From a virus (taxonomy: Duplodnaviria; Caudoviricetes), in IMG/VR virus record IMGVR_UViG_3300010366_000066, positions 1 through 24,244 of that record: DNA of 24,244 nt; one strand, given 5' to 3'. Below the pieces are notes generated by a model that was given only the letters and a program-made list of their open reading frames with translations, made no database searches and was not told where the DNA came from. The translations under genes were made by a program, and so were the position numbers. Positions within the stretch are counted from its first letter, which is position 1. Every line of letters begins with the position of its first letter. Below, one piece after another: positions 9,690 to 24,244 of the stretch.

Positions 9690-10139
9690 TTACTCGGTGG
9701 TTGTCTCTTCGGACTGCTGGGACGCGATGTAATTCTGCACGTCCGTCTTCGTGACACGACCTTCAGCGCCCGTGCCCTCGACATCGGACAGGCTGACGCC
9801 CTCGGCCTCTGCGAGTTCCTTCGCGCCCGCAGTCGCGTTTTCCTCGCCCTCCTCGGCTACGGTCTGTGCCTCGATTTCCTCTTCGGCATCCGTGCCGTAG
9901 TCCTCCGAGAACTGCTCCGCGAGCGGATGATCCACGATGGGCAGCAGCGCTCCTGCCGACGTGAGCGGATCGGGAGAGCCGTACTGCGGTGGCCCCATGA
10001 CGACGGGAACCATGTCCATGTCCTGATCCTCCGGTGAAACGTACGGGTTGTTGAGATTCGGAGACTGGACGAAATTCTCCTGGCCGTACTGGTGTGCAGC
10101 CAACTCCTCTTCGGTCGCGTTCGGGTTCTCGTCGGCCAT
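9690..10139 (-). CDS. acidic protein with C-terminal E3-binding (PSBD) domain
   Basis: ATAGAKELAEAEGVSLSDVEGTGAEGRVTKTDV matches the peripheral subunit-binding domain consensus (A...A..LA.E.GIDL..V.GTG..GRI...DV). Confidence 0.75.
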   Translation of the reverse strand: MADENPNATEEELAAHQYGQENFVQSPNLNNPYVSPEDQDMDMVPVVMGPPQYGSPDPLTSAGALLPIVDHPLAEQFSEDYGTDAEEEIEAQTVAEEGEENATAGAKELAEAEGVSLSDVEGTGAEGRVTKTDVQNYIASQQSEETTTE

Positions 10140-15173: not shown

Positions 15174-16856
15174 CTAGCGAGAGGCGATCACGTTCGTATT
15201 CATCCTTGACGAGAATCCACCCGGAACGTGCAGCGGTGGATTCGTAAGACCAGCAACTGTCGCAAACATGCAGGCGTGGTGCCAGTGGTCGGGGTTCTTA
15301 TTTCGTTTCCAGCGGGCGATCAGAATTCCCCTGGTGTTTTCCTCTTCGACCCTGGCTTGCTGGATCATCTGATGGTAGACCCCGTTGTAGTCTTTGCGGG
15401 GAAGATGCTCACCAAGCTCTCTGGCAGAATACGGAAGCCGTGCCAGTCCATTCATGAACTCACCGATGACAGTATCGAACGCGAGGGTACGGTCGATCTT
15501 GACTTCCGGAGCTTCCTTGTATTTCACTTGCCCGAAGTGAGCAATTTCCCCTTGCTGATCCCTGTCCTGCTCGAATCCCATATACAGACGTCCGTGATAT
15601 TTCAGAGCGAGTTCTCGGGATTTCGACTTCTCCGGATGGGCGTCGATCACTCCGACCCACTGCGGGAGGGAGGAGAGCCACTTGTCGAGTTGGTCGAAGT
15701 TCTGAAATATCTTGACGTTCCACAGCCTGCGGACGTTTTGTGCTTTCGTCCAGCACCAGGCGTGGATCATCGTGCCCACGTCAATTCCGATCTGGAGGTA
15801 CGACGAGGGGATACCACCGACCTCGTATCGCTCCCTGCAACTGTCGAGGAGTTCCACGGTGAACCTGTCACCGACCGCCGTGAAGGGGAGACCCATCGAC
15901 TGATTCCAGAAAGCCTTCATGTATTTCACTTCCCGAAGGCCCTTGAAATAGTCACGCATGATTTCAGGGAGAGTCTGCGTGGGGGAGTTGAACTGGTTGA
16001 TGTGGTATCCCCTCGTATCTCCGTCTGGGTTGTACGGTGTCCAGCGCCCGAGTGCGTTCAGGAATGGGCGCTCCTCATCGGTGAACTCCCGATTACAGAA
16101 CGCACATTCCAAAACGCAGTCGTGACGGTCATTGCCGACTTTCAGGTTGTTGTAGTCGAGGGCCTTGTCGTTCCAGTTGAGAGACTGAAATCTGTTACAG
16201 CCTGGGCAGGGAATTTCCCATCTATGTTGGTCTGAGAAGTCCCATGCATCGTCCGAGTAGATTCCATGCCCATCTACTGTAGGAGTAGAGAGCATGACGA
16301 GCTTCTTGATATGCGAGCCGTCCATACGATGTCGGGCATCACCGAGATTTTCCTCGACCATCCGGTCTCGCTCGTCCCAGACCTGAAAATCGACGGGAAC
16401 CTCTTGGAGTTCGTTCTTGATGTTCGTGCCTCGGATGTAGAGATTGAATTTCTTTGCGGACTGCTTGTGCAGCCGGTTGTCCACGGCCTTGAATTCTTGA
16501 GCGAGCAGGGGGTTCGACTCGATCATCGGGTCGATGCGTCCCTGCACGAAAGGCACTGCGCCAGTTTTCAGAGGAAGGAGGTAGAGGACGTTCCATCCAC
16601 GGACGGCGACAGCGTGGAGAGATTTCACCAACATCGTCACGGTGAACCTCATCTGAGCCGCTTTGGGAATTACAATCTCGGGCGAGTAATCCCTGATCAC
16701 CTGACGGACGTATTCGCCTCTTTCGAGAGTGAACTGGTGTCCATCCACTCTCAATTCCATGTCGAGCGCCCATTCGTCGGGACGCGCAAGGTTCCGCACC
16801 GATCTTCCTGCGGCGGCACGGGCAGCGCTACGCGGCATGGTTAGCGGCTTTGTCAC
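15174..16856 (-). CDS. terL: terminase large subunit, lambda GpA family
   Basis: KAAQMRFT (Walker A-like), WDERDRM (Walker B), STPT, CPGC/CAFC zinc motif, GYHINQFNSP, GIDVG nuclease, PDHWHHA. The start may be ATG 16838. Confidence 0.9.
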   Translation of the reverse strand: MTKPLTMPRSAARAAAGRSVRNLARPDEWALDMELRVDGHQFTLERGEYVRQVIRDYSPEIVIPKAAQMRFTVTMLVKSLHAVAVRGWNVLYLLPLKTGAVPFVQGRIDPMIESNPLLAQEFKAVDNRLHKQSAKKFNLYIRGTNIKNELQEVPVDFQVWDERDRMVEENLGDARHRMDGSHIKKLVMLSTPTVDGHGIYSDDAWDFSDQHRWEIPCPGCNRFQSLNWNDKALDYNNLKVGNDRHDCVLECAFCNREFTDEERPFLNALGRWTPYNPDGDTRGYHINQFNSPTQTLPEIMRDYFKGLREVKYMKAFWNQSMGLPFTAVGDRFTVELLDSCRERYEVGGIPSSYLQIGIDVGTMIHAWCWTKAQNVRRLWNVKIFQNFDQLDKWLSSLPQWVGVIDAHPEKSKSRELALKYHGRLYMGFEQDRDQQGEIAHFGQVKYKEAPEVKIDRTLAFDTVIGEFMNGLARLPYSARELGEHLPRKDYNGVYHQMIQQARVEEENTRGILIARWKRNKNPDHWHHACMFATVAGLTNPPLHVPGGFSSRMNTNVIASR

Positions 16857-16889
16857 CTGACGGGGGCGATCCGGTGAACGCCCGCCGGG

Positions 16890-16918
16890 ATTTTACTCGC
16901 TGCGCTGAATTAGGTCAA
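16890..16918 (-). promoter_or_regulatory. sigma70-type promoter for the terminase/structural operon
   Basis: TTGACC-N17-TAAAAT on the minus strand, followed by a GC-rich leader hairpin. Confidence 0.7.
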
Positions 16919-16929
16919 ACCAGGGTTGA

Positions 16930-17403
16930 CTAGATGCAGCCTCGGGACTCCATGTAATTCAGCCATTTTTCAAGCGACCAGTTGGGGTTCGGAACGACCT
17001 GAATTTCACCGGTCTTGAGGAGGTATTCCTTCCCCAGCGCCATGAGGATGATTTCAGCCCTGGAGTAGCCGACCGTCAGCTTGTCTCCATGCAGCACGTA
17101 GGAGAGGAACCTGATCGGTACCCTGGAGCCTAGACGGGCAGTCTCCTCCTCTATGTATTGGAGGGGGCCAAGGAAGATGTTCGCGGAGTTGAAATCGAGA
17201 CCATCCTTGGGGTACTCGATTTCCCAACGTTGCTGAAACTTACGTATTTCCTCGGCGATCTGAAATCCTGGTACCACCTCTGCCTCACCGGCAGAGTTGT
17301 AATTCTCCTTGGGAGATGGGAATGGGATGACGTTATTTTCAGTTCTCTCCTTATGAATTCTTGTCGTCTGGATGGATGGCCTGTAGCCTTTTATTCCCGG
17401 CAT
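16930..17403 (-). CDS. putative HTH DNA-binding protein
   Basis: ATG 17403 with GAGG SD; VPIRFLSYVLHG..TVGYSRAEIILMALG resembles an XRE-like HTH C-terminal half. Confidence 0.5.
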   Translation of the reverse strand: MPGIKGYRPSIQTTRIHKERTENNVIPFPSPKENYNSAGEAEVVPGFQIAEEIRKFQQRWEIEYPKDGLDFNSANIFLGPLQYIEEETARLGSRVPIRFLSYVLHGDKLTVGYSRAEIILMALGKEYLLKTGEIQVVPNPNWSLEKWLNYMESRGCI

Positions 17404-17545
17404 GGCGAAGTTCCTCAAGTTGATCGACAAGCTCGCGATTGATCGTCTGAGTCTCTACGAGTGTAATCGCGAGAGAGACGACGGTATCCCTGAGCGCAGT
17501 GATTTCACGCTCAAGGATTTCACATCTGCGGCGGTAGTCCATCAT
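17351..17545 (-). CDS. small coiled-coil protein
   Basis: 64 aa, heptad pattern; ATGA overlap with the upstream membrane ORF. Confidence 0.55.
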   Translation of the reverse strand: MMDYRRRCEILEREITALRDTVVSLAITLVETQTINRELVDQLEELRHAGNKRLQAIHPDDKNS

Positions 17546-17640
17546 CGATAGCAGAAATACCAGATGACGAAGCAGGCGATAATCGAGGGCAGGACGATGA
17601 CGAGGCAGAGCACGATCCAGGCAAAGAGCACCCAGTCCAT
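17542..17640 (-). CDS. 32-aa single-pass membrane peptide MDWVLFAWIVLCLVIVLPSIIACFVIWYFCYR
   Basis: Not in ORF track; TAATG start overlap and ATGA end overlap. Confidence 0.65.
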   Translation of the reverse strand: MDWVLFAWIVLCLVIVLPSIIACFVIWYFCYR

Positions 17641-17912
17641 TACCCCTCGCCTACAGGAGGATGTATCGGAAAGACAGCGAGCTTCTGGCCGTTGACGGCA
17701 AGCAGAGCTTTGAGGTGGATGAAAATATCCCCGACTGCCTCGGCATCGTCCTCGTAGCCGTGCATCGCCATTCCCCCGTTGTCACCATCGGAGATGAAAA
17801 CGATGAGCCTGTCTTCCGGGGTAATTCTGGGGTCGTTAGCGAACTTGCTGATGAGCATGTCGCAGACGTGGGTTATTCTGTCGTGAGGCTTATCGGAACG
17901 AGTGGGTGTCAT
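17640..17912 (-). CDS. hypothetical protein
   Basis: 90 aa; coupled at both ends. Confidence 0.65.
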   Translation of the reverse strand: MTPTRSDKPHDRITHVCDMLISKFANDPRITPEDRLIVFISDGDNGGMAMHGYEDDAEAVGDIFIHLKALLAVNGQKLAVFPIHPPVGEG

Positions 17913-18100
17913 TTCTTCTTACGCCTCACCCGGTGCGAGCCTTTTGAATAGACCGAGTTCGCCTTGGCGACTGCGGTTTTTCCACGGCCATACTGGTTCG
18001 CCTTCGCGTAGAAGATGGAAGTCCCTTTTTTCTTCCCGTACGTTTTCCTCATCCGGGCCAGGGCTTTCTTCGACCCCTTGCTGTACGCCGAGCGTGGCAT
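17909..18100 (-). CDS. small basic protein (K..M.K.YG.KKG..IFYA..N type)
   Basis: AAGGAG SD before ATG 18100; motif familiar from small basic phage proteins. Confidence 0.7.
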   Translation of the reverse strand: MPRSAYSKGSKKALARMRKTYGKKKGTSIFYAKANQYGRGKTAVAKANSVYSKGSHRVRRKKK

Positions 18101-18251
18101 TTTCACTCCTTGATCTTACGAGCCGTTCATACGCCATTCTACGACAGCCGTCGGCGTCTTCACAGAACGGCATGGTGCCAAGTGTCTCGTAGTCGATGGT
18201 GAGGTATTTCGGTCTGGTCAAGATGGAACGTCCGCACAGAGCACATTTCAT
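17919..18251 (-). CDS. putative zinc-finger protein
   Basis: CALC...CEDADGC with AGGAG SD; the 3' half overlaps the basic gene in another frame. Confidence 0.45.
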   Translation of the reverse strand: MKCALCGRSILTRPKYLTIDYETLGTMPFCEDADGCRRMAYERLVRSRSENATLGVQQGVEESPGPDEENVREEKRDFHLLREGEPVWPWKNRSRQGELGLFKRLAPGEA

Positions 18252-18290
18252 TTTGGAACTCCTGTCGGAATGGGGGAGGGATTTTCATCA

Positions 18291-18443
18291 CTACTGCTCC
18301 GGGGCTGGTGCCTCTTCCTCCGGAGGCCCCTGCTCTCCCTCGGGGTCATCCACGATTTCCTCGATGGGCTGTTCGTCGGGATTGTGCTCCAGCGGGGGAG
18401 CCTCCTCCTCGGGAGCCTTTTCCTCTTGTGGGGTCTCAGTCAT
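18291..18443 (-). CDS. 50-aa acidic Pro/Glu-rich protein
   Basis: GGAGGTG SD before ATG 18443; PEEEAP occurs twice. Confidence 0.65.
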   Translation of the reverse strand: MTETPQEEKAPEEEAPPLEHNPDEQPIEEIVDDPEGEQGPPEEEAPAPEQ

Positions 18444-18702
18444 TTTCACCTCCTTCCGACTTCGGTTGCAAACGTTCGAACTTCCGATAGCCCTTCCAGC
18501 GGTGAATTTCACCTTTAGGCCCTTTACCGGGAATCCACGTAGGCCAGGGAGCCAGGATTTCATCAATGCATTCGAAAGGATTTTCATCGGTGGAGCCTAC
18601 AGCACGGAGGAAATCCAAGGTGGTCGAGTCCATTTCATCGAGGGTTGACTCTTTGGAAATCCCGATGACCGTGAAGCTGAATTCCTGGACGTTTGAAATC
18701 AT
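18436..18702 (-). CDS. hypothetical protein, first gene of the leftward unit
   Basis: 88 aa; AAGAGGATC directly before the ATG. Confidence 0.6.
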   Translation of the reverse strand: MISNVQEFSFTVIGISKESTLDEMDSTTLDFLRAVGSTDENPFECIDEILAPWPTWIPGKGPKGEIHRWKGYRKFERLQPKSEGGEND

Positions 18703-18720
18703 GATCCTCTTAGGACGGTG

Positions 18721-18751
18721 AAATTAAGGGGAGGCCCTGGCGAACCTCCCC
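18721..18751 (-). terminator. terminator/attenuator-like hairpin in the leftward leader
   Basis: GGGGAGG-10nt-CCTCCCC-TTAATTT on the minus strand, between promoter and first gene. Confidence 0.45.
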
Positions 18752-18789
18752 CTGTGTAGAGGCCGACAGTCAAGTCGGTCGGCACCGTG

Positions 18790-18818
18790 AGCTTACAGGG
18801 TGGCTGATGGCTCGTCAA
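18790..18818 (-). promoter_or_regulatory. leftward promoter
   Basis: TTGACG-N17-TAAGCT. Confidence 0.6.
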
Positions 18819-18949
18819 GGGCGTCTCAGGAGGCCCGTAGAGGCCCCCTGAAGCGATTGAACCCCCTGGAGGTGACCCCAAGACCCCACAAGGGGGTCTA
18901 GAACACTGGCGGGATGAAATTGGTTTGAGGCCGTTTTGGGGTCGATTGA

Positions 18950-19760
18950 GGTTCTGGAATGAAATCTTGAGACATGTTGATTGGTCGTCAACATATGGGT
19001 CTTATCCGGGGTCGTTCTGACATTTGATCTGAAATCTGTAACAGGGCTTCGGACAGGGCTTTTGATTTCACTTAAACTGAAAACTATATTTCACTCCCAA
19101 GGGGCATTCTGAAATCTGAAAATTTTCACTAAAACTGAAAAATAATTTACATTCTAGCCCCGCCGGGAAATCGTCCTCCAGACCCTCGAATTCCTGAAAT
19201 CCGGTTGGCTCAACCATGCGATTTCAGAGGCTCTGGTGCGGTCTGTCACTTGGCTCAACCATGCGGGTTTGAGGCTATTGTGCTGAATTTCACAATGGGG
19301 GTGTAATTTCACTTACTGGAGGGAGTTCGAAATTCATTACAGAGGGTCGGTACTGAAATTGAAACGACCGTGGATAGGCTCGGCCTAGGATCGAGGACAG
19401 AGAGCAGGGGAGAGAGCATGGGACAGAGGGATTCCCCCTGCCCGCCGAACAGGCTCTGACTGTAATTATCGAGTGGAATCGAAGAGCATGGATTCCCTAG
19501 GCTCCCCAATTGCCTGGCGGCTTTCATCCCTGCGAGGATTTCAGAGGGTCTCGCATACCCTCCGAGGAAATTCTTCCGGCCGTGGATTGCCTGTTCTGGA
19601 ATCAGAGAATCGACGCAGGGACAGAGGGGTCTCTCAGTGAAATTCCCTGAGGGGTCTCTGAGGCTCTCCGGAGGGGTCGGACAGGGGAATTCTCACCCCT
19701 GAGGCTCCGAGGCTCTCAGAACGGCTCAGAATGCCTCGGAGGGGGTCTCTGTTTCCGATG
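18950..19760. repeat. non-coding control region with AT-rich tract and short direct repeats (possible origin or packaging site)
   Basis: AAACTGAAAA x2 in an AT-rich tract; TTGGCTCAACCATGCG at 19205 and 19250; GGACAGRG at 19051, 19395, 19421, 19619 and 19679; GAGGGGTC repeats. Confidence 0.55.
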
Positions 19761-19785
19761 GCTGCTAGCGGAATCCTTCCCGCTC

Positions 19786-19814
19786 TTCCGGAGCCGATGA
19801 AATCCTGCTACCTT
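19786..19814 (+). promoter_or_regulatory. rightward promoter with extended -10
   Basis: TTCCGG-N17-TACCTT with TG at -15/-14; the TGCTAC core recurs at 23547-23555, 23882-23890 and 24236-24244 on the minus strand. Confidence 0.5.
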
Positions 19815-19847
19815 GGGGTCTCGGCCGGAGGTTCGAATCGGCCGGAA

Positions 19848-19860
19848 GAACCTTGAAAAC
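19848..19860 (+). promoter_or_regulatory. boxA-like antitermination element 1
   Basis: GAACCTTGAAAAC, similar to Gram-positive rrn boxA (GnTCTTTGAAAAC); preceded by a hairpin at 19821-19845. Confidence 0.55.
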
Positions 19861-20042
19861 CTAGGTCTCCGAAACGGCCATTAGACCGCGTGGCTGCATG
19901 CCTCTTTGCGGGCCGTTTCGTCAGAGACCTAGCGCTACTCAATCGGCGCGCTCCCGTAGGCATTCGTCGGGCATCTGGCTCTACGCATGAACTAACGATG
20001 AATGGACGAGAATCTGAAAACCTGCGGAGTCGGTTGAGAGTG
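19861..20042 (+). ncRNA. structured leader RNA (two abutting domains)
   Basis: Domain 1: CTAGGTCTC/GAGACCTAG plus CGAAACGGCC/GGCCGTTTCG (19861-19932). Domain 2: CTCAATCG/CGGTTGAG, CGTAGG/CCTGCG and CATTCGTCG/CGATGAATG with G-U pairs (19933-20042). Confidence 0.65.
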
Positions 20043-20054
20043 AACCTTGAAAAC
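20042..20054 (+). promoter_or_regulatory. boxA-like antitermination element 2
   Basis: Exact second copy of GAACCTTGAAAAC. Confidence 0.55.
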
Positions 20055-20058
20055 CAGA

Positions 20059-21499
20059 CAGAGTGTGCGTTCAATCCATCCCCTCGGGGGGTTCTTTTCA
20101 TACCCTGAGAGGATCGAAACGAATGCACAATCCATACCGCCCTGGCGCGAATCGTTTCTACATCGCGGAACAGGCAATCGCGGGCAAGTCTCAGAGCGAG
20201 ACGTTCAACGCTCTTCGGCCGATGGTCGAGAGCGAGACTCTCGTCTTCAAACGGAATCCGACTCGGAGTGAGAAGGCTATGGGTATCACTACCCGTATCC
20301 CCCTCGCTTCGAAGGCTCTCCAGCTACAGGCTCTCCGCGATGAAATCGGACGGGTCTATCACGTCCTCGGATTGTCCATCGGACGCAAGTTCGATGAGCA
20401 GGAAATTCCGAGGATTCCGACCCCTCCGACCCCTGAAATCCCGATGGAAGAGGCTCCGGTTCCCGACGAAATTCCGACCCCTGAAGAGGAGCCGGAAGAC
20501 GAGGAGATTCCGGAGGCTCCGGAGACGCCTATCGCCAAGGGCAAAATGAAGATCAGGGAAGAGGTTAACTACTTCATTCGGCGGTGCAATGAAATCCGCG
20601 ACAGAATCGCGGATAGAGTCCGACTTGGTGAGACTGCTCTGGACTGGATTTCAAACCGTCCTTCGCAGGCTGCCATTCGGCTCATTCCGAAAGGCATTCC
20701 CGCCGATGCCCTGCTCTACACTATGACGCTCCATTGGAGTGCGGATAGTCGGCAGTCCTACGGGATTTCCGATTATGACATGGTGGCACTGTCCAAGTCC
20801 ATCATGGAAGAGCGGAATATCACTGAAATCGTCCGCAAGGATGGCAGGGTCGAGAGACCACATGTGATGTTCGGTTACGTCCTCACTCTGGCGGAATGTC
20901 GAATCCCCATTTTCCTGGTCGGTGAATTCGGGACTGGAAAGTCCTGGCTAGCCGGTCAAATCGCCGATTACCTCGGCGTGGATTACGGGGAGACGCCGAT
21001 GTGTCTCGGCGCTACTAGAGGTGATTTGCTCGGAAGATTTACGGCGAATCCCGATCAGGCTTTCATCGCTGCTCGGTTTGCTGAAATCTACGGGAATGGT
21101 GGAGTCTTCAACTTCGAAGAGTTCGACGCGGGAGACCCTGGACTGCTCATTGTTCTGAATAACGCAATGGCAGGGAATCACTTCTACAACTCGATGAACG
21201 GTGACATGATCGAAAGGTCTCCGGAATTCATCGCTGTAGCGACCGGAAATACGTACGGTTATGGCGCGAATACCCGCTACACGGCTCGGGAGCACCTCGA
21301 CGAGGCTACTCTCGACCGTTGGCGCATGGGTCGCGTTTGGGTCGATTTCGACCGTGACTTGGAACAATTCCTGGCCGATTCCTACCTGGATTCGATCGGA
21401 ATTTCCAAGTAGTCTCGATCCCGCTCTCTGAGCGGGTTTGCAGTACCTAGGGCACAAGATGCCCGACCCCCTGAGGGGATGAATTGAGCGCACACTCTG
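20059..21499 (+). repeat. inverted-repeat pair 1 enclosing the AAA gene (20059-20093 / 21465-21499)
   Basis: 35 positions pair as RNA, with 3 G-U wobbles and one C-A mismatch. Confidence 0.9.
20123..21412 (+). CDS. MoxR/CbbQ/CobS-like AAA+ ATPase
   Basis: GEFGTGKS Walker A, FNFEEFD Walker B, ATGNT sensor, LDEATLDRW Arg finger; acidic Pro-rich linker; start moved to ATG 20123 (GAGAGGA SD). Confidence 0.9.
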   Translation: MHNPYRPGANRFYIAEQAIAGKSQSETFNALRPMVESETLVFKRNPTRSEKAMGITTRIPLASKALQLQALRDEIGRVYHVLGLSIGRKFDEQEIPRIPTPPTPEIPMEEAPVPDEIPTPEEEPEDEEIPEAPETPIAKGKMKIREEVNYFIRRCNEIRDRIADRVRLGETALDWISNRPSQAAIRLIPKGIPADALLYTMTLHWSADSRQSYGISDYDMVALSKSIMEERNITEIVRKDGRVERPHVMFGYVLTLAECRIPIFLVGEFGTGKSWLAGQIADYLGVDYGETPMCLGATRGDLLGRFTANPDQAFIAARFAEIYGNGGVFNFEEFDAGDPGLLIVLNNAMAGNHFYNSMNGDMIERSPEFIAVATGNTYGYGANTRYTAREHLDEATLDRWRMGRVWVDFDRDLEQFLADSYLDSIGISK

Positions 21500-21501
21500 A
21501 A

Positions 21502-22621
21502 ATTCGGTAGCTCGCTCATTCAGGGTTCTTCCGGAGAGCGAGTAGAGAATGAAAACCATGCGAGCACGGTATGCAGGTTACTGCACGCGGTGCAAGGGTC
21601 GAATCAGAGTAGGCGAATCGATGGTCTACCTCGGAAAAGGGAAGACGTTCCATCCCCTCTGCTACAGGGGGGATGAAAACGGAGATTCCCCGGAGGCTCC
21701 GACTATCGATGTTCCGCCGAAACGGCCGACACTTCCGCCGCAAAGAGGACTGAAGACGTTCACCGTGGATTGGGGAGAGTTGAAACAGAATCTCCTCGCA
21801 GCATTCCGCGACGATTTCAGAGCCTTTCCTCAACATGCCTCTGAGGTGAAATCTCACCTAGTCCATCCCAATGAAGGATGGCAGGGATACGGCGGAGAGG
21901 ACTGCAAACGGTGGCTAGAGTCTGGTTACAACTCCGACGCGATTAGGAATCTCGGTGACTTCACTCCTCCCCTCCGAAAGAAACGGCGAATCCGTTTCGT
22001 GGAAGAGGGGGATGAATTTCACTATGACCTGGCCGCTTCGGGAGCCGATAACTTCATGAGTGAGTGGACTCAACGGGAGAGAATTCCGGGGATGAAAATC
22101 AACATCGCTCTAGGGTTCTCGGCGGACGTCTCTGAGACCGTCCTGAATCGCTATGCGAAGTGGGTATGCAAGGCGATTTATTCCGTCATCGATATCGGGA
22201 TTGATCCTGAAATCTCGATTCACTACACGGCGGACAGGATGGTGGAAGGGGAAGAGGGGCCGCACGATACCCGAATCCGAGTGAAGAAAGAGCGCGAGGT
22301 GATGGATTTCCAGTCCTTCTCCGCAATGCTCTCTCCTGCTCAATTCCGGGCCTATATGTTCTGCGCGATGTATCTGCATTGCGAGAGCAGGGGTCGGAAG
22401 ATTACGGGAGGTCACGGTACGTCAAGTCGGTTCTTCACTCAATGGGGAGTCGATTGGGATAAAGAGCAGGAAATGCTCTACATCCGCTGCAACTATGGCG
22501 GATACGGATTCTCCGAGGAAACAATGGAGAGTCAACTCAGAGCAGCGTTGAAGGAAATGGCTAGCTAGTCCAGCCAGGAATTACAATTCAGGGGGAACCC
22601 TGAATAAGCGAGCTATCGAAT
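21502..22621 (+). repeat. inverted-repeat pair 2 enclosing the VWA-like gene (21502-21532 / 22591-22621)
   Basis: 31 positions pair, with 3 G-U wobbles and one C-A mismatch. Confidence 0.9.
21549..22568 (+). CDS. degenerate VWA/CobT-like partner of the AAA ATPase with N-terminal Zn ribbon
   Basis: ARYAGYCTRC...HPLC N-terminus; EEGDEFHYDLAASG, INIALGFS and SPAQFR motifs; typical pairing after a MoxR ATPase. Confidence 0.6.
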   Translation: MKTMRARYAGYCTRCKGRIRVGESMVYLGKGKTFHPLCYRGDENGDSPEAPTIDVPPKRPTLPPQRGLKTFTVDWGELKQNLLAAFRDDFRAFPQHASEVKSHLVHPNEGWQGYGGEDCKRWLESGYNSDAIRNLGDFTPPLRKKRRIRFVEEGDEFHYDLAASGADNFMSEWTQRERIPGMKINIALGFSADVSETVLNRYAKWVCKAIYSVIDIGIDPEISIHYTADRMVEGEEGPHDTRIRVKKEREVMDFQSFSAMLSPAQFRAYMFCAMYLHCESRGRKITGGHGTSSRFFTQWGVDWDKEQEMLYIRCNYGGYGFSEETMESQLRAALKEMAS

Positions 22622-22686
22622 ACGGAATTCCGGAGAGCAGCGGAGAGGATTTCATCCTGAGAGAACGCACACTGAAAGGATCGAGA

Positions 22687-22929
22687 ATGTTCTACGCTTT
22701 GCTTCCCCGGCCGGACGGTTCAATCTTCTACCTGAACCTGTCCGGAATCTACCTCGAATCGGACGCGAATTTCAAGCTGTCTGAGACGCTCGAATCAATC
22801 ACGAATTCCATCGAGAACGTTCGGTGGGATTTCCTGATCGATACGGAAATGTTCCCGTCACTCGAAGAGTATCGGGAATTCCCGTGCTATCGGATGCCCG
22901 ATGGTGTCCTGCGCTGCGAGGGGTGCTGA
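22687..22929 (+). CDS. hypothetical protein
   Basis: 80 aa; AAAGGA SD; Cys-rich C-terminus. Confidence 0.65.
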   Translation: MFYALLPRPDGSIFYLNLSGIYLESDANFKLSETLESITNSIENVRWDFLIDTEMFPSLEEYREFPCYRMPDGVLRCEGC

Positions 22930-22931
22930 GA

Positions 22932-23027
22932 ATGGACTCTGAGAGCCTGTTCTGGGCAATTTCAGCGGCACCTATCGTGCTCGCCTACCTCGTCTGGTAC
23001 CTCTGGTCGAATTTCCTCGATTACTAG
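22932..23027 (+). CDS. 31-aa membrane peptide MDSESLFWAISAAPIVLAYLVWYLWSNFLDY
   Basis: GAGGGG SD, ATG 2 nt after the upstream stop, one hydrophobic helix. Confidence 0.55.
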   Translation: MDSESLFWAISAAPIVLAYLVWYLWSNFLDY

Positions 23028-23103
23028 CCTGAAACAGCGCTAGAAAGTCGGAGAATTTCCTACCCCCTCTCCGCTGCTCTCCCGAATTCCGAATTTCATT
23101 TTC

Positions 23104-23140
23104 AGCCCGGAGGCAATTCCCGCTCCGGGCTTTTTTATTT
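23104..23140 (+). terminator. intrinsic terminator of the rightward operon
   Basis: AGCCCGGAG/CTCCGGGCT stem followed by TTTTTATTT. Confidence 0.85.
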
Positions 23141-23454
23141 CCCCGGCTGTTGTCAGAACGGACAACTCGGAGAGCGGAGAGATTAGGTTCGGCTCGGCCG
23201 TGCGAGGATTCCAGAACTACCCTCGGAATGAATTCCTCGCAATTCCCCCTCCCCCTCGCGAGAGCGCGTAATGCGGGAGGCAATTCCGGGTTTTCACGGA
23301 GCGGGATTTCGAGGAAATTCAAACCGGATTTCAGCGGGAAAGGGATTTCGAAAGATTTCGGAATTTCAGGTGTCGGCATTCCGGAGCGAATTGCGGTCGA
23401 GCAGGCGACGGGGGAACTGACCAAAGGCTTCGTGGAAAAATGCTTGCGGCGCAC

Positions 23455-23541
23455 AAAAAGAGAGCGCCCTTTCGGACGCTCCCTTCATCCTGAGAGGATC
23501 GTTCTGCCGCCACGCCGGGAGGATCAGACCCGAACGTTGCT
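23455..23541 (-). ncRNA. candidate antisense sRNA 1 (~87 nt)
   Basis: Own promoter (23547-23574) and terminator GGGAGCGTCC-GAAA-GGGCGCTCTC-TTTTT (23455-23483); carries CGAUCCUCUCAGGAUGAA, complementary to gene leaders. Confidence 0.65.
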
Positions 23542-23546
23542 CCTAT

Positions 23547-23574
23547 AGCGTAGCAGAGCTTAGACGGCCGTCAA
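23547..23574 (-). promoter_or_regulatory. promoter of sRNA 1
   Basis: TTGACG-N16-TACGCT with extended TG. Confidence 0.65.
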
Positions 23575-23818
23575 ACGGCCTCTGTGCGCCTTGTGGGGTC
23601 TCTCTACTAGGGGAGCATGGTGCCAGGAGCCATTCTAAGGGGTCTAGAAGGCGTCGCTAGCGTCGATGAATGTCGGAGTCCAAGTGAGGGGGTCGAAGCG
23701 CTCAGATCGCAAATTTCGAAGTCGAAGTCCGAAGTGCGAATTCGGGCAAGTGCCGATCCCGACCCCCCGGCCTTGTTTGTGGCAATTCACACAAGTGAAT
23801 TCACTCTGTCCTGAAATG

Positions 23819-23876
23819 AAAAAACCCCCGGCCTTGTGAGCCGGGGGTCTGTTCTCCGGAGAGCGAGTCCGGGAGC
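23819..23876 (-). ncRNA. candidate antisense sRNA 2 (~58 nt), or 3' UTR of the 98-aa gene
   Basis: Same TCTGCTACGCT -10 box (23882-23892); terminator ACCCCCGGC/GCCGGGGGT plus U-run (23819-23848); carries ACUCGCUCUCCGGAGAAC. Confidence 0.55.
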
Positions 23877-23892
23877 TTGCGAGCGTAGCAGA

Positions 23893-24189
23893 CTAGGGCT
23901 TGTAAATCCAGTCTGGCTTGGGCTGGAGGATTCCCTTCTCGACCAGACCGTCCGAGAACACGGTGTCCTTGCGGAGCGCGTCGATGCGGGAAGCGTAGAC
24001 CCAGTGATCGGGCTGCGCGGCGGTGAGGAAGCGATCCACGTTGAAATTCGGGTTCGTCTCCTTGAGCGCGTCCACGAAGGCGAGCCGCATGCCCGCCATG
24101 TGCGAGTGCTGCATGGTGTCGTCCGGGGAGATGCGCTCGGCCTCGGCCTTAAGCACGTCCGCGATAAGCTGAAAGTCCTTCTTGGTCAT
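23893..24189 (-). CDS. conserved small phage protein (MT.KDF..IA....NP.F...RF type)
   Basis: 98 aa, GAAAGGAAG SD, TGCTACTGT extended -10 at the window end. Confidence 0.75.
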   Translation of the reverse strand: MTKKDFQLIADVLKAEAERISPDDTMQHSHMAGMRLAFVDALKETNPNFNVDRFLTAAQPDHWVYASRIDALRKDTVFSDGLVEKGILQPKPDWIYKP

Positions 24190-24244
24190 GTCTTCCTTTC
24201 GTCTTGGGCGCTGCCTCTAGCGCCTCAGTGATCGTACAGTAGCA

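Follow-up and report, generated by a model that had tools for sequence, protein, structure and literature searches.

The window, meaning the whole stretch of 24,244 nucleotides under analysis, is a 24.2-kb phage fragment, with leftward terminase, portal, capsid and tail genes in the left 18.7 kb. A 149-aa gene adjoining the capsid gene (9690-10139, minus strand) encodes an E3-binding domain (PF02817). To the right of this structural block, three rightward cassettes are found: a CobS/MoxR-like AAA_5 ATPase gene (cassette 1; 20123-21412, plus strand, 429 aa), a DUF7192-like gene (cassette 2; 21549-22568, plus strand, 339 aa), whose Pfam score of 26.1 bits is under the 27-bit cut-off, and small ORFs from 22687 (cassette 3), beginning with an 80-aa ORF (22687-22929, plus strand). 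The rightward operon has a candidate extended -10 promoter at 19806-19814 (plus strand), with a similar site 280-440 nt upstream in six of the seven loci examined, and a terminator-like end at 23104-23138 (plus strand; hairpin of -17.5, U run), 350 nt before the seed copy discussed below. A 98-aa ORF (23893-24189, minus strand) converges on the operon, and the first terminase-side ORF (18436-18702, minus strand, 88 aa) has a promoter-like site upstream at 18818-18790. The 80-, 98- and 88-aa ORFs are without family match, and for the last of these no relative was found among the loci compared. Two hairpins lie between its promoter-like site and its start (18722-18790, minus strand), the second being terminator-like and followed by TTAATTT; they are possibly an attenuator before the terminase-side operon. 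Further to the right, about 0.9 kb (18900-19800) lacks a credible ORF and holds many short repeats, including a 31-nt AT-rich pair (19066-19096 and 19124-19154), which might represent a genome end or origin region.

A separate inverted repeat of 30-34 nt surrounds each cassette. On the plus strand, the leader arm of stem I1 (20059-20092) pairs with the trailer arm at 21466-21499, that of I2 (21502-21535) with 22588-22621 and that of I3 (22619-22648) with 23066-23095. The I1 leader arm also hides the SD and AUG in a local hairpin, and the I1 trailer arm covaries in relatives. Around the AAA gene, the own trailer is the best partner for 26 of 28 leaders (-76.4 versus -45.2 ± 7.8), in a test that omits five duplicates and loci without flanks. 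The 24 ungapped stem cores that scored contain 29 G-U, 11 A-C and 16 other mismatches, and this G-U excess (29 versus 11) indicates that the stems favour plus-strand RNA; the ungapped-core count supersedes one on the full stem duplexes (144 versus 152). DNA inversion at I1-I3 was rejected because of the same bias and because each pair has its own sequence. Two presumably boxA-like words are present on the plus strand, at 19853-19860 and, just before the I1 leader arm, at 20047-20054; the word is found upstream in 24 of 28 loci and in gene starts in none of the 28. According to the folding model, closing the stem lifts SD accessibility from 0.31 to 0.49 for leader 1 and from 0.23 to 0.69 for leader 2, though not for leader 3. 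In relatives the modelled effect of the trailer is mixed, with an increase of at least 0.1 in 13 of 27 and a decrease in 3 of 27. An alternative pairing between trailer 1 and leader 2 is possible (21479-21519) and hints at a folding cascade.

On the minus strand, opposite its targets and 0.8-3.4 kb away from them, lies the unit for sRNA 1, a predicted 87-nt RNA (23455-23541) consisting of a 5' hairpin, a linker, a seed hairpin and a terminator. Its promoter-like site (23547-23574, minus strand) combines a -35 TTGACG (23574-23569) with an extended -10 TGc-TACGCT, of which TACGCT is at 23552-23547. The spacer of 16 nt is 1 nt below that of most relatives, and the site is not listed by a generic promoter scanner. 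The same promoter type is found at free-standing, ORF-less units in five relatives (L083, L089, L095, L105 and L112). The seed, CGAUCCUCUCAGGAUGAA (23484-23501, minus strand), forms a weak hairpin immediately 5' of the terminator, a position that it has in 13 loci. The intrinsic terminator (23455-23486, minus strand) has a 13-bp stem with G-U pairs, a GAAA loop and a U run, and folds at -23.7 on the minus strand versus -12.5 on the plus strand. Compared with shuffled sequences, the z-score of the fold is about -2.36 to -2.53 on the minus and -0.31 on the plus strand. The possibility of a small peptide gene was rejected, as all three minus-strand start codons inside the unit lack an SD, and their frames read through the terminator. 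Across loci, none of the orphan tag copies in such units has a well-placed ATG or GTG ORF behind it. The -35/-10 site, the terminator fold and the ORF check thus bear out the initial annotation, made from the sequence alone, of a minus-strand promoter-terminator unit without credible ORF. This annotation had also placed a second GAUCCUC near 23518-23524; the word is indeed present, but at 23519-23525. It is the second, shorter anti-SD word, exposed by the loop (23528-23520) of the 5' hairpin (23509-23540, minus strand). Its modelled binding to four leaders in the window is weak (0 to -6.3 kcal/mol), and its conservation was sought in relatives and not found. No result favoured the target outside the window that was initially considered for it.

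The matches between the seed and the leaders are real and beyond chance. Read on the plus strand, 23489-23501 is identical to 20104-20116 and 23484-23496 to 22651-22663 (both 13/13). The former site is the tag plus SD of the AAA ATPase gene (target 1, plus strand), the best among 32 start regions, and the complementarity to this SD region first proposed for the seed is therefore complete. The match at 22651-22663, proposed for the cassette-3 leader, also holds at 13/13, but does not concern the cassette-3 SD. It is an upstream tag copy (target 2a, plus strand), 24-36 nt before the AUG and predicted to be the anti-SD strand, and the true SD of the 80-aa ORF is found at 22672-22683 (target 2b, plus strand; 11/12 to the seed; repeat family D7). 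In the model, sRNA 1 binds the AAA leader at -6.8 kcal/mol when the leader is alone and at -13.9 when the trailer is bound, which means that predicted binding about doubles once the stem closes; the joint duplex on targets 2a and 2b reaches -7.5 / -10.6 kcal/mol. Only the starts at 20123 and 22687, out of 32 start regions, share 13 nt with the unit, with 9 nt for the next best. When the 58-nt body was dinucleotide-shuffled 3000 times, the control suggested initially, a single match of at least 13 nt to the 32 start regions occurred once and two such matches never. Among 4517 real 58-nt windows, four have two such matches, every one of them overlapping the sRNA 1 unit.

A possible third target is the SD of the first terminase-side ORF (18703-18714, minus strand), which is only 3 nt from the AUG. 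The 11/12 match reported earlier for this leader is confirmed and becomes 12/13 with one more base. The site ranks top among 28 leftward starts (-23.4 versus -22.0), is accessible and has a modelled binding of -10.2. In all four relatives with enough sequence, the terminase-side starts are without tag, and the relatives' own seeds bind them weakly (-12 to -17). Control of both arms of the divergent region, as claimed initially, is therefore not supported as a general feature, and the arguments for and against 18703-18714 as a lineage-specific target are about evenly balanced. The conserved regulon would rather comprise the rightward AAA operon and the promoter-proximal genes converging on it. 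Elsewhere on the leftward side, the leader (18252-18280, minus strand) of the ORF at 17919-18251 contains TTCCGACAG, the tag core of the commonest relative class; no seed matching it was found in the window.

A second unit (23822-23892, minus strand) forms the 3' end of the converging ORF, with a seed at 23855-23868 followed by a terminator. It repeats the 11-nt extended -10 of sRNA 1, without a clear -35. Its target is the SD region of the DUF7192 gene (21530-21543, plus strand), matched at 14/14. In the accessibility-aware model, sRNA 1 binds leader 1, leader 3 and the leftward leader (-6.8 to -13.9) and is not bound to leader 2 (only -3.0 and -1.7), and unit 2 binds leader 2 alone (-14.4 and -11.9). 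Therefore, the cassettes appear to be split between two RNAs without overlap.

Relatives were collected by alignment searches, which gave 53 viral and 51 metagenome loci and then 6 + 3 more, including some repeats; L074 and L095 are near-identical. The distant AAA proteins that made up most matches of one alignment search were left out of the analysis. Single-protein queries (the AAA protein or P0002, its closest relative) retrieved no locus from the viral contigs, where alignments succeeded, and no relative was confirmed in the genome contigs searched. For the AAA protein, 213 of 8000 scored candidates are relatives, many of them on contigs of about 70 kb, and a 69.8-kb contig encodes the same protein; L004, a relative by its terminase, stops short of the AAA region. 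Based on the SD and promoter style and on the similar gene placement in Gordonia and Mycobacterium phages, the host is presumably actinobacterial. The cultured phages Sephiroth (a Gordonia phage, L001) and Aegeus have a distant AAA homolog at the genome end, without clean gene-bracketing stems, and a mirror unit was looked for in Aegeus and not seen. In Sephiroth, the non-coding stretch before the AAA gene (L001 6955-7190) has same-strand mirror words of its own leader motif, in another layout.

In the relatives, the SDs of the rightward cassettes and of promoter-proximal converging genes are overlaid by a tag specific to the lineage, and genes on both strands have it 5-14 nt before their ATG or GTG. 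Five classes were set by eye, namely CCGACAGAAAGG, CAGGGAAAGG, CUAGAGAAAGG, GAAAGGAUC and the window's CCUGAGAGGAUC. In 13 phage loci of the AAA/DUF7192 family, the mirror of the locus's own start-associated tag lies directly 5' of a terminator, tracking all five tag sequences. For minus-strand terminators this is the case in 12 of the 23 loci examined, the window counted, most of the others ending too early. Units were identified in L109, L110, L111, L067, L077, L083, L089, L095, L105, L096, L112 and the window, plus L082, with two units each in L089 and L109 and two tandem seeds in L077. The seed comes after a coding sequence, with tagged converging genes, in L109, L110, L111, L067, L077, L082 and one L089 unit. 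In L073, L084, L087 and L098, fragments that reach the converging genes, a seed was looked for and none was found. In 13 of 14 units, the seed strand gives the better terminator fold, with U tails inflating the G-U count. The unit in L082 (229-282, E 6.7e-6) was newly found with a model that lacked base pairs and was hence sequence-only, trained without L082; 12 of its 15 matches are training sequences. It lies on the AAA-gene strand, with the mirror still 5' of its own terminator. The orientation of a unit therefore follows its own transcript and not the target operon, which argues against a DNA operator.

In those parts of the complete relative G001 that were retrieved, 8 of 11 motif matches precede a start codon, 4 of these 8 being right behind a promoter-like site, and the matches cluster around the AAA operon. 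A perfect tag copy without ORF behind it also occurs far from the early region, in a strongly folded stretch (L119 17443, G001 about 63942). Sense tag copies after the last rightward gene, again without ORF behind in the list of starts used, are present on the plus strand in L111 (10376), L095 (2222), L077 (3838), L109 (12828) and L087 (8851); these are possibly decoys for the antisense RNA or empty cassettes. Two more ORF-less promoter-terminator units (L095 2828-2953 and L073 4240-4339, both minus strand) have no anti-tag seed and might be unrelated small RNAs.

Seeds and tags change together in the relatives, as the covariation check proposed initially revealed for five tag sequences and 13 loci. 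By modelled duplex energy, all 12 seeds prefer their own targets to those of every other tag class, with means of -21.4 kcal/mol for own targets, -18.8 for the same class (36 pairs) and -13.3 ± 3.0 for other classes (96 pairs), a test that is partly circular because the seeds were located by their match and the classes were set by eye. A hairpin-first test was run on 19 loci with the rightward leaders as sole targets, in which a strong complement (median -17 or lower, a cut-off picked after the 12-seed energy test) preceded 14 of 52 minus-strand and 1 of 32 plus-strand terminator-like hairpins. Nine on the minus and none on the plus strand beat every other class by at least 3 kcal/mol, and 11 of the 19 loci scored. 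Two of the 14 matches (L109 12811 and L105 1530) are probably not genuine units, while the test overlooked the true L105 unit and L112 narrowly failed the cut-off. The entire SD is covered by the seed duplex in the window (target 1), L083, L089, L105 and L112, whereas the perfect match of L109, L111 and L095 takes in the 5' half of the tag and ends within the SD. Seed-target mismatches are not biased to G-U-compatible changes (17 versus 15, p 0.43). In an unrooted tree of 19 DUF7192-like proteins, the CAGGG class is a well-supported clade and the GAAAGGAUC class a weaker group, the window and L105 each having their own long branch. This suggests about four independent tag changes with a matching seed change. 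The co-change of seed and target, together with the L082 orientation, supports the trans-acting antisense RNA over SD regions that was postulated initially.

sRNA 1 is thus probably an antisense RNA gene, the seed of which would pair with the SD tags of early mRNAs and block their translation, resulting in a delayed early shut-off. It is likely that one RNA shuts off translation of the whole early gene set, because the relatives changed tag and mirror together. As the promoter type is the same, the host polymerase would transcribe sRNA 1 alongside the early genes, and the short, terminator-capped RNA could then accumulate. The seed loop would contact the tag loop, and the resulting duplex might cover SD and spacer. 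In the case of the AAA gene, the model predicts a leader that hides its SD until the gene's trailer pairs with it, and binding of the RNA to this opened form with about twice the strength. The 3' end of a tagged early mRNA contains the seed in many relatives; therefore, early-gene output would feed back on all tagged genes. In the window, the job would be divided, with sRNA 1 serving cassettes 1 and 3 and the second unit cassette 2. Promoter type and gene position are what point to early shut-off as the timing.

The same RNA and the same pairing might mainly serve exclusion or persistence, by silencing a second phage with the same tag or by keeping a carrier-state genome quiet, and the tag classes would then be RNA-based immunity groups. 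The existence, among 13 loci, of five tag classes, each with its matching seed, suggests diversifying pressure, and a 4-nt change in c4 of P1/P7 and its targets restricts cross-action (PMC5320573). Yet integrase, recombinase, resolvase and ParA matches are missing in all three complete relatives. One tag class is kept across very distant branches, which fits poorly with immunity groups, and exclusion or persistence is unlikely as the main job. Another possibility might be an action in cis. In type I toxin mRNAs, the 3' end folds back on the mRNA's own SD, and the 3' end of a tagged leftward mRNA could do the same, the free-standing units being left-overs of gene loss. The seven cases above with tagged converging genes and a seed behind a coding sequence are compatible with this, but six units (window, L083, L089, L095, L105 and L112) have their own promoter-like site and no ORF, and in the window the 3' seed of the converging ORF matches cassette 2 and not its own leader, so that folding in cis is very unlikely to be the explanation.

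It is highly improbable that the RNA activates translation by opening SD-hiding tag hairpins: the whole SD is spanned by the duplex in the window (target 1) and in four relatives, and the best model for leader 3 also covers the true SD, even though 22651-22663 is the predicted anti-SD strand of that leader and the perfect match in L109, L111 and L095 stops inside the SD. Just as improbable is a protein site, either on DNA (oriented and stoperator-like) or on sense RNA (as a decoy), with 23484-23501 as one more site. In favour of this, the DNA of the orphan copy directly repeats the rightward tags, the seed-target mismatches lack a wobble bias (17 versus 15), and oriented DNA sites of similar size are described for cluster A mycobacteriophages (PMC3203893, PMC4351075). 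However, the tag keeps its SD spacing on genes of both strands, the mirror of the L082 unit, which lies on the AAA strand, still precedes the unit's terminator, a terminator-like structure marks the end of the rightward transcript at 23104-23138, and five unrelated tag sequences would demand five protein specificities. A chance likeness among SD-like words can hardly be credited. It is true that the seed resembles an anti-SD word and that each of two unrelated parts of the window likewise shares 13 nt with one start region, but none of the 3000 shuffles gave two, the terminator-adjacent position is fixed in 13 loci, and matching is class-specific; chance remains a fair explanation only for the third site, 18703-18714.

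Regarding lysogeny, the three complete relatives (CheckV 100%) were searched for tyrosine integrase, serine recombinase, resolvase and ParA genes using the models PF00589, PF07508, PF00239 and PF13614, the window itself being a fragment. None of the three has a match, and the control searches were positive. The initial suggestion of a c4- or CI-like silencing in a lysogen is thus unsupported, and early shut-off fits better than c4-type lysogeny because no integrase or ParA match was seen in these relatives. A wider scheme, rather doubtful as a whole, would be an early programme run by RNA only: boxA-type antitermination would come first, the SD would open when the leader-trailer helix closes around the finished gene, anti-tag RNA from the 3' ends of early transcripts would then silence, and tag and anti-tag, drifting together, would become private codes that also separate virulent phages into exclusion groups. 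What the comparison of relatives points to is a single short, predicted RNA for a whole tagged regulon, in phages without detectable lysogeny genes. The address code would have been rewritten about four times with the pairing kept. The five natural seed-tag pairs, which discriminate in the model, would serve as orthogonal translation switches.

Among known phage RNAs, the P4 CI RNA is about 80-90 nt long, with loops that pair in trans and partly cover the RBS. The c4 RNA of P1/P7 shares these properties and shows a co-change of seed and target (PMC5320573), all of which resembles sRNA 1. With regard to the two loops of c4, two anti-SD words are present in sRNA 1, the 5' one binding weakly in the model. 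Unlike c4, sRNA 1 has no tRNA-like 5'-3' closing stem for RNase P, and instead consists of three separate hairpins with its own terminator; it would address several operons, and no lysogeny genes were detected in the relatives. Moreover, c4 is encoded in the operon of its targets, whereas sRNA 1 lies opposite and 0.8-3.4 kb off. An Rfam search of window positions 16500-24244 gave no c4 among 13 sub-threshold matches at E up to 5, and in eight relatives there was no match at the gathering score. The target of a type I antitoxin RNA encodes a small toxic peptide, and the best target here is a 429-aa AAA ATPase. The mode of action predicted for sRNA 1 is also like that of the 6C (B11) sRNA of Actinomycetota. 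This sRNA is encoded by the host, has C-rich loops and acts on a broad range of targets (PMC6486639), in contrast to the phage-encoded unit with its 11-13-nt seed fitted to the phage's own tag; the two C-rich loops and the Rfam match typical of 6C were not found in sRNA 1.

At the level of strategy, T4 also shuts off a set of early mRNAs at translation start, with RegA repressing about 30 mRNAs and RegB inactivating early transcripts (PMC3014915); T4 uses proteins for this, where a base-pairing RNA would do so here. The leader-trailer stems are similar to the helices of rRNA operons (PMC8632103), in that genes are enclosed by a long-range helix with a boxA-like word before it, although the sequences enclosed here are protein genes.

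The closest likeness of the tags themselves is to the start-associated sequences (SAS), a short asymmetric motif over the SD of non-structural genes that is conserved beyond rRNA pairing in cluster K mycobacteriophages and cluster EF Microbacterium phages (PMC3203893, PMC7302621, PMC11373665; see also PMC4351075). The tags described here fit this, being asymmetric, in mRNA sense, over the SD and a few bases before start codons. They also belong to non-structural genes only, and none of the window's 28 leftward starts is matched over more than 9 nt. The cluster K 13-bp SAS consensus is absent from the window and its relatives, which use other words, and ESAS-type repeats were not seen in the window. 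The tag sequences differ and the phages are unrelated, and here the mirror precedes a terminator, often has its own promoter and covaries with the tag. The 2011 paper mentions, for four K1 phages, a single inverted SAS copy that is not at a gene start, and does not decide between an RNA and a protein partner (PMC3203893); the 2024 paper still calls the role of SAS unknown (SAS papers: PMC7302621, PMC11373665). In the literature searched, to which most subscription papers and the SAS supplements did not belong, no phage RNA complementary to a shared start tag is described. The inverted SAS of Anaya (record positions 59870-59882) occupies a predicted hairpin loop between genes 96 and 97. This hairpin comes right behind another strong hairpin (record 59779-59899, L115 29780-29900). 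No inverted copy was found at up to two mismatches in the right halves of Pixie and TM4. The RNA-only early programme, if true, would account for the SAS motifs and the lone inverted SAS of the cluster K1 mycobacteriophages. The anti-tag finding offers a concrete and cheap test of the SAS role, open since 2011, as the inverted SAS of Anaya is testable in M. smegmatis. Compared with c4-like phage antisense RNAs, which control one immunity operon, sRNA 1 is predicted to address a whole tagged regulon.
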